DNA from: Eledone cirrhosa
Taxonomy: Eukaryota
Length of the DNA: 64,000 bases
Assembly: GCA_964016885.1 (NCBI GenBank)
Contig: CAXHJY010001207.1
Span: 1-64,000, forward strand
Reading direction: 5' to 3'
Shown here: piece after piece, positions 44,992 to 45,928 of the stretch
Layout of the letters: every line of letters starts with the position of its first letter
Position numbering within the stretch: position 1 is the stretch's first letter
The notes under the pieces: model-generated
What the model saw: only the letters and a program-made list of their open reading frames with translations
The model's database searches: none
Told to the model about the DNA's origin: nothing
Translations under genes and position numbers: made by a program

Positions 44992-45928
44992 ATCCAGAGA
45001 CTTTCAATAATGACCAGAAGTCGACCCTAAATAGTACTAATAGCTCTAGGAAAGGAATGAACTCCACCACATCTTTTTAACTTTGATTTTGAAAGTAGGT
45101 TTATAATTATCAATTTTCATTATACTATCGTAGATGTCTCGGTGGCCGAGTTGGGAGAATCGTAGACGGTGGTGATCCTGGTCTGGAGTTCGATCCTGTG
45201 AGGGAGTAGGGTTCCCGGTAAACCTTTTCAGTTTTTTTCTATTGGTTGTAAAATAAAAACTGAAAAAGGTTACATGTACCTCTTGACCAGGATTGAACCC
45301 AAGACCAGGATCTCTACCGTCTCTAGTACCTACCGCTAGGCCACAGAGACTACTACAAAAATCTTATGAAAATTCATACTTATAAACCTACTTTCAAAAT
45401 TTCCAAGACTAAGTGTTGTGGTGCCGTTCATGCCTTTCTTAATATTGTCGACCCTAAGTAGGAGCAATGACATTAAGAAAGGCATGAACGGCACTACAAC
45501 ACTTAGTCTTGGAAATTTTGAAAGTAGGTTTATAAGTATGAATTTTCGTAAGGTTTTTGTAGTAGTCTCTGTGGCCTAGCGGTAGGTACTAGAGACGGTG
45601 GAGGTCCTGGTCTTGGGTTCAATCCTGGTCAAGAGGTACATGTACCATTTTTTATTTTTTATTTTACAACCAATAGAAAAAAACTGAAAAGGTTTACCGG
45701 GAACCCTAGACCCGACCAGTATCGAACTCCAGACCAGGATCACCACCGTCTATGATTCTCCCAACTCGGCCACCGAGACATCTACAATAGTATAATGAAA
45801 ATTGATAATTATAAACCTACTTTCAAAATCAAAGTTAAAAAGATGTGATGTGGTGTGGTTCATGGCTTTCCGTGAGTTATTAGTAATATTTAGGGTCGAC
45901 TTCTGGTCATTACTGAAAGTCTCTGGAT
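44992..45928. mobile_element. Nested palindromic element with four tRNA-like cassettes, copy 2 (937 bp)
   Basis: Ends atccagagactttca and tgaaagtctctggat; spacer 45444-45471. Cassettes at 45136-45207 (+), 45278-45350 (-), 45565-45637 (+) and 45708-45779 (-). Confidence 0.9.
45565..45637 (+). pseudogene. tRNA-like cassette (73 nt, imperfect cloverleaf)
   Basis: A-box tggcctagcgg, D-stem gcct/aggt, B-box ggttcaatcc, partial acceptor stem gtctct/agaggt. Anticodon and T stems pair poorly. A T-run follows at 45648. Confidence 0.65.

Follow-up and report, generated by a model that had tools for sequence, protein, structure and literature searches.

Non-autonomous hAT elements and hAT-type MITEs (Ds-like) possess short terminal inverted repeats (TIRs), an 8-bp target duplication and GC-rich subterminal repeats, are non-coding and can move as composites by way of an outer end. 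The head of tRNA-derived SINEs is a degenerate tRNA-type sequence, in which the A and B boxes are spaced as in a tRNA.

RNA polymerase III (Pol III) promoters have been described in LTR-type miniature elements as well, namely in the TRIMp3 elements Cassandra, Helenus and Ajax, which are non-autonomous, contain tRNA- or 5S-derived Pol III promoters and probably give rise to no functional tRNA; the term 'DNA transposon' is absent from the main text of that article (PMC10886601). The table of PMC10946416 lists 5S promoters in retroelements only and in no DNA transposon, and a figure legend of the same article names DNA transposons among the carriers of rDNA-derived sequence. In the pertinent section of PMC3845634, the absence of a Pol III promoter is used to set a MITE-like element apart from SINEs, while PMC13282606 gives in its accessible part family counts only, and its supplements may hold the family treated here. 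A literature search, with Repbase, Dfam and most subscription papers outside its scope, did not find this family described. Pol III promoters in SINEs and TRIMs are already known; the novelty lies in an intact pair of convergent genes and in a mutation footprint that points to their likely activity. Since DNA transposons need no RNA intermediate, intact Pol III units aboard such an element raise the question of a selected cargo.

The palindrome and its cassettes

The 64-kb stretch of DNA analysed here, referred to as the window, is rich in microsatellites, and no gene is apparent among its ORFs as judged by eye; its repeats would seem to be of an octopus-like kind. It harbors a 937-bp palindrome at 44992-45928, whose arms 44992-45443 and 45474-45928 agree in 425 of 457 aligned columns and are separated by a 28-nt spacer (45444-45471). 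Each arm is itself an inverted pair of paralogous units, A and B, which are ~70% identical in the window and 75% identical between the family majorities (163/216 columns). A profile built from the cassettes and run on the window yields exactly 8 matches. The features are as follows.

40860..41513, minus strand: copy 2, in which the palindrome recurs in inverted and truncated form, including its junction and four cassettes
40873-40969 (+), 41004-41097 (-), 41298-41391 (+) and 41426-41513 (-): cassettes of copy 2, the last one cut at its 5' end (profile match)
44862..45017, plus strand: left arm of the hAT-type element with the first TIR bases, a ~62-nt internal deletion and subterminal sequence (alignment to genomic copies, sequence)
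44992..45443, plus strand: left arm of the palindrome, unit A (+) followed by unit B (-), the normal convergent pair of the family
45100..45106, plus strand: TATA box of cassette A1, within a block of 20 nt without differences between A and B
45130..45228, plus strand: cassette A1, a predicted 99-nt Pol III transcript with A box, B box, 3' hairpin and T-run (profile match; start taken from the TATA spacing)
45263..45356, minus strand: cassette B1, a predicted 94-nt Pol III transcript with its TATA at 45380-45386 (profile match)
45444..45471, no strand: fold-back junction of 3-nt filler and 25 nt of inverted family sequence, known from this contig only
45472..45928, minus strand: right arm of the palindrome, an inverted duplicate of the left arm that ends in a (TA)n tract without a right TIR
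45559..45652, plus strand: cassette B2 with its TATA at 45529-45535 (profile match at 45559-45651)
45687..45785, minus strand: cassette A2 with its TATA at 45809-45815 (profile match)

The nested palindrome, the four cassettes in the order + - + - with T-runs facing between the members of each convergent pair, and the second copy had all been recognized in the first-pass annotation and are confirmed here. The extent given for the element stands only in part: the 937-bp palindrome is real, but the element starts further left, at 44862, where it is preceded by a (TA)n tract and retains a TIR remnant followed by the internal deletion. Copy 2 is inverted with respect to the first palindrome and 97% identical to it, with 71/71 nt the same at the centre and only 4 mismatches between the left arm of the palindrome and the right arm of copy 2. 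Immediately to the left of copy 2, at 40473-40827, lies a small MITE-like element with inverted repeats, which is present at unrelated loci too (e.g. L193, L333, L334).

In all four cassettes of the first palindrome a TATA box stands 30 nt ahead of the G at which transcription is predicted to start, the A and B boxes are spaced as in tRNA genes and a T-run closes the unit. This is the layout of type 2 Pol III genes, with predicted RNAs of 94-99 nt. When the 937 bp are shuffled, the A plus B box pattern is reproduced once in 20,000 trials. Among 86 genomic copies, in a sample enriched for intact B, the full promoter pattern with an intact TATA is found in 31 (A) and 38 (B). The earlier designation of these sequences as tRNA-like Pol III cassettes thus holds for TATA, A and B boxes and T-runs, but not for a tRNA shape: ARAGORN reports 0 tRNA genes over the window, and Rfam searched up to E=10 gives 19 matches, mostly generic hairpins below the gathering score, with no tRNA, vault or Y match. 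In the absence of any real Rfam or ARAGORN match, the identification of the cassettes as tRNA, vault RNA, Y RNA or miRNA was rejected. A parent tRNA or SINE was likewise rejected, with alignment scores of 32-45 against five heads compared to 97 for A against B and a likeness confined to the boxes. A tRNA search in which 63 candidates were scored gave 16 matches, and neither a parent tRNA nor a host locus as source of the cassettes came to light. Six U6 loci inspected by eye place their TATA at a similar position and have no common PSE with the cassettes, and a single degenerate 28-nt pattern, which is a weak test, gave 0 matches in each viral or metagenome collection.

Several other Pol III-type sequences were encountered. 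The window includes, at 26505-26620, the head of an ordinary tRNA-type SINE, which resembles the cassettes only at the level of its A and B boxes. At G000:C19:31780605-31840331 (L072-L081) more than 30 U6 genes are repeated in tandem every ~1.8 kb, and a SINE replaces the upstream region in some of these units. A second dispersed repeat (L134, L136-L144, L348-L416; e.g. G000:C2:16467255-16470327) is ~1.7 kb long, ~1% diverged and found at 69 exact motif places; it adjoins TA runs and contains a terminal hairpin, an internal inverted repeat and, together with a 5' flank of its own, a complete tRNA cloverleaf. Since the anticodons differ between copies of this repeat, tRNA gene calls are inflated (10 of the 16 Rfam tRNA matches).

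A family of non-autonomous hAT-type transposons

The cassette DNA belongs to a non-autonomous hAT-type transposon, as is evident from its TIRs and target duplications. In 26 inspected loci the sequence on both sides of the cassettes continues as element up to the TIR CAGTGGCGGACTGG, accompanied by 8-bp duplications. The TIR is 14 bp long at both ends in 30 two-ended elements (all loci); 11 of these have non-simple flanks, and in 9 of the 11 the 8-bp target duplication matches at 7 or 8 of 8 bases, while the other 19 sit in simple repeats and are uninformative in this respect. Many copies lie in (TA)n tracts. The first-pass annotation had proposed a mobile family without an assignable named class and had suggested that copy number, ends and target-site duplications be checked genome-wide; mobility is borne out by the dispersed copies with these ends, and the 14-bp TIRs together with the 8-bp duplications provide the missing class.

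Far from being limited to the two copies in the window, three family motifs are found at 289, 197 and 417 exact places, with 0 for the controls. An overlap estimate, which rests on just 4 shared places, amounts to roughly 2,800-7,200 cassette modules, so that the family comprises a few thousand copies, 4-8% diverged. Transposase-bearing hAT families of this genome have the same first 8-10 TIR bases and 8-bp duplications. The closest one shares the first 10 TIR bases, is 4.3-4.4 kb long and encodes an 883-aa ORF (PF05699, PF14291); a transposase with the exact TIR was not found in the 70 hAT loci examined. A young autonomous hAT family (L113, L114, L122, L123, L130; 4.3-4.4 kb, 8-bp duplications, ORF of up to 883 aa), the copies of which show 94-100% protein identity, is a candidate mobiliser of the cassette transposon.

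Samples in genome order depict a modular build, in which the (TA)n-separated modules are a left arm L, a cassette module C of ~760 bp, in many cases another L, and a right arm R. Module C is one convergent (inverted) pair of ~215-bp units, each with TATA, A box, B box and T-run, and is sometimes arranged in tandem. The composite L-C-L-R has moved as one piece in L238 (2176 bp, two left TIRs), where an 8/8 duplication is associated with the outer TIR, and the cassette-free elements L187 and L205 have target duplications of their own. In a tree of 86 modules, copies of an older subfamily are 7.6% from their majority, those of a star-like subfamily with fusion of L and C 5.3%, and those of a young sub-clade, to which the arms of the window belong, 3.9%; in the larger sampled subfamily neighbouring modules have been lost and C has been retained. 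Other element sequence is present at 26/26 and 29/30 sampled cassette loci, and among these 26 + 30 loci no clear case of a SINE-type copy, starting at the head, ending in a tail and free of the upstream flank, was observed. One lone 5'-cut cassette fragment adjoining (TA)n (L159) could be a SINE-like exception.

The palindromic form is not that of the family. Of 3604 candidates in the 3.0-Gb genome 40 were scored, and all 38 places outside the window hold a single arm only, with long inverted arms in 0/38. The 131-nt palindrome centre (440 candidates) is fully matched at 2 of 40 scored places, both in the window. Inverted pairs of C occur elsewhere only at L255 (1/30 loci) and at L227 (1/143, by a stricter filter that missed L255), and the junction of the window was not found at either of these rearranged clusters. 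The palindromic or foldback-type family envisaged in the first-pass annotation was therefore rejected, with dispersed copies being single-armed and the junction being confined to this contig. In the palindrome, a single copy of a cut-and-paste hAT-type transposon, which is non-coding and abundant, has been folded back locally.

Mutation footprint and role of the cassettes

A first sample, picked by cassette similarity, suggested strong conservation of the B box, which shrank in a sample picked outside the cassettes. For the footprint the first 100 of the 417 places of a motif outside the cassettes were employed; after removal of short and near-duplicate rows 95 were left, of which the 90 with at least 250 aligned columns were used. 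Positions inside are those of the predicted units from -20 to the T-run, a boundary that was set after the profile had been viewed and that agrees with the published definition.

Substitutions inside the predicted transcription units amount to ~2x the element baseline, namely 0.065 inside versus 0.035 outside at non-CpG A/T sites (p=6e-12) and 0.102 versus 0.075 at G/C sites, and divergence is greater inside than outside in 85 of the 90 copies. In 36 copies of the fused subfamily the A/T rate inside is 0.060, compared to 0.028 for the outside of C, 0.028 for arm L and 0.029 for the tail; since the latter three agree, it is the units that are raised and not the flanks that are spared. The 49%-GC part of arm L is at baseline as well. 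The two highest 10-nt windows of the module are the -10..-1 bins of A (3.39x) and B (3.07x), which lie on opposite strands, and most sites of this upstream peak bear several different alleles. The contrast persists when CpG/TpG/CpA sites, homopolymers, TATA windows and sites at which A differs from B are left out, and it holds for transversions alone. Gene conversion between the arms as the main cause of the excess was rejected, as 197 of 496 changes are toward the paralog base compared to 179 expected.

The comparison was made against a negative control only, namely the second dispersed repeat described above. The A/T rates of this cloverleaf-bearing repeat are 0.0074 inside and 0.0077 outside (67 of the 69 places used), with no upstream peak and a marginal paired difference (39/67, p=0.049); because the repeat is young, its counts are low for a control. 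In active tRNA genes divergence is raised and highest in the 20 nt upstream, as described in the relevant part of PMC6130373, and the corresponding part of PMC13010820 likewise reports transcription-associated mutagenesis with raised substitution upstream. The doubled mutation rate of the cassettes thus likely records real germ-line transcription, as far as a profile of substitutions can indicate it, and the earlier description of the cassettes as Pol III genes gains indirect backing from it.

Transcription-linked mutation is often strand-biased. Such a bias is not consistently seen in the cassettes: the C>T to G>A ratio comes to 1.26 for A and 0.95 for B, with a skew confined to A>G in B. The dependence of the excess on an intact promoter is in the right direction but weak (2.05 vs 1.90, 2.08 vs 1.60, 1.97 vs 1.73, 1.87 vs 1.64).

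Taken together, the locus is probably best explained, judging from its sequence, as a rearranged copy of a non-autonomous hAT-type transposon with two facing Pol III-type units that were once transcribed and that would most plausibly have travelled as passengers. Elements without cassettes have target duplications of their own, and A boxes and 3' hairpins are not spared but decay freely among copies (observed/expected 0.96-1.33), which probably makes the units passengers. With selection evidence being thin as well, a transcribed passenger is favoured over a selected cargo and over dead debris.

A rather unlikely alternative is that the transposon keeps a working convergent pair of Pol III genes because it aids its spread, be it that bound TFIIIC/TFIIIB hold the copies in open chromatin, that TFIIIC-bound chromatin acts as a barrier, or that short RNAs of ~95 nt serve as decoys against silencing or editing. 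TATA and B box are retained in both paralogs despite ~25% divergence and are unchanged in three subfamily majorities, and the TATA bins change at 0.66-0.78x the baseline; the TATA blocks are, however, no quieter than other AT-rich windows, and the sparing of the B box is mostly gone among rare variants of the unbiased sample. A and B form the 3' hairpin in one and the same register, and two changes in it are double-sided, yet it is not favoured in full-length A, and folding z-scores of the whole cassettes are ordinary (0.77 and -0.66). Similarly, the bodies of A and B exhibit 22 differences where 28.9 are predicted from the mutation rate of the copies (P=0.07), but clustering of the conserved A-B blocks is not significant (p=0.15-0.17). 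The retention of C where neighbouring modules were lost would be in line with a useful cargo, to which the movement of cassette-free elements is opposed. If the pair were indeed kept in working order, thousands of active Pol III units would have been seeded, with their germ-line activity readable from the mutation profile of the copies.

Less likely still, the cassettes are debris of a SINE head or tRNA gene, which was never transcribed within the element, and the mutation excess arises from sequence context or secondary structure. The lack of a consistent strand bias, the weak dependence on promoter state and the likeness to tRNA and SINE heads at box level only would fit such an origin, and A and B, being paralogs, have their local context in common. 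Against this, the excess persists at A/T sites with A/T neighbours away from CpG, and the AT-rich peak stretch is positioned at the same offset on opposite strands, whereas a GC-rich control and the second tRNA-carrying family are devoid of a peak. A cruciform would include the upstream arms, yet these are at baseline.

Under the favoured reading, that of a transcribed passenger, the family provides one Pol III promoter, with its flanks, in thousands of nearly neutral copies and thus a natural reporter for transcription-linked mutation, and the mutation profile of the copies offers a route to infer the germ-line activity of a repeat from the genome alone. Long double-stranded RNA on read-through is possible according to predicted folding, with a 456-nt hairpin for the family majority and 445 predicted pairs for the palindrome; the 75%-identical inverted pair in each copy could yield such RNA wherever it is read through.

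Origin of the palindrome and relation to known systems

The events leading to the present locus may be pictured as follows. A Pol III gene of tRNA ancestry would have been duplicated in inverse orientation and then caught between hAT ends, and the resulting element would have been spread by a hAT transposase acting in trans. TFIIIC, TFIIIB and Pol III would have kept initiating on many copies, yielding a pair of ~95-nt RNAs terminated at the facing T-runs and, as a trace in the copies, the mutation footprint. In one copy a break would have been healed by snap-back of a 3' end at a 3-bp microhomology, and the palindrome thus formed would later have been duplicated nearby in inverted orientation. 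Snap-back repair is suggested by the 25 nt of turned-back family sequence, the 3 filler bases and the 3-bp microhomology available at the junction. Without a right TIR, the right arm ends in (TA)n, so that the palindromic copy is probably immobile. Other parts of the window, at 37-1462, 14758-14957 and 47407-47599, likewise contain local inverted duplications or short palindromes between (TA)n tracts, which suggests that fold-back events are common in this region.

It is improbable that the palindrome is an assembly artefact, i.e. a fold-back read chimera on a small unplaced contig. The junction is known from this contig only, and among the matches listed for contigs of three runs from one sample none spans the palindrome, with loose ends at 45447 that continue as family sequence. 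However, the arms differ from each other at 16 of ~300 positions (about 5%), and copy 2 carries the same arm-specific variants, which a single-read chimera would not yield; the fold-back is therefore older than the duplication. Highly improbable is that module C is a mobile element in its own right that targets (TA)n and often lands inside a hAT miniature element, since, in spite of (TA)n on both sides of C in the older subfamily, tandem C (L152, L163, L167) and 7 of 30 C-anchored loci where no hAT arm of the same orientation lies within 1.5 kb, C is accompanied at the other 23 by L, y or R modules in its own orientation, no terminal repeats were seen by eye at the ends of C, and the outer ends of composites bear the hAT duplications.

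The element agrees with hAT transposons in its structure and does not conform to foldback elements, tRNA genes, SINEs or TRIMp3. Like hAT-type MITEs it has short TIRs, an 8-bp duplication, no coding capacity, GC-rich subterminal repeats and composites that move by their outer ends; unlike these it bears two complete, convergent Pol III-type units, each provided with an upstream TATA and a terminator. With the tRNA-derived SINEs it shares a degenerate head of tRNA type and the tRNA-like distance between A and B boxes, whereas its conserved upstream flank accompanies every copy and the T-run directly follows the head, with no body or tail. The resemblance to TRIMp3 concerns the non-autonomous nature, the tRNA-type Pol III promoters and the likely lack of a functional tRNA. 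As set out in the main text of PMC10886601, TRIMp3 are LTR retroelements that need RNA to replicate and that are characterized by direct LTRs, PBS/PPT and 4-5-bp duplications, while the present element is of the cut-and-paste type with inverted units, an 8-bp duplication and termination after ~95 nt. Compared to active tRNA genes as portrayed in parts of PMC6130373 and PMC13010820, the peak of substitutions in the 20 nt upstream is alike, but the body is raised instead of conserved, the increase is ~2-3x instead of 7-10x and a consistent strand bias is missing.
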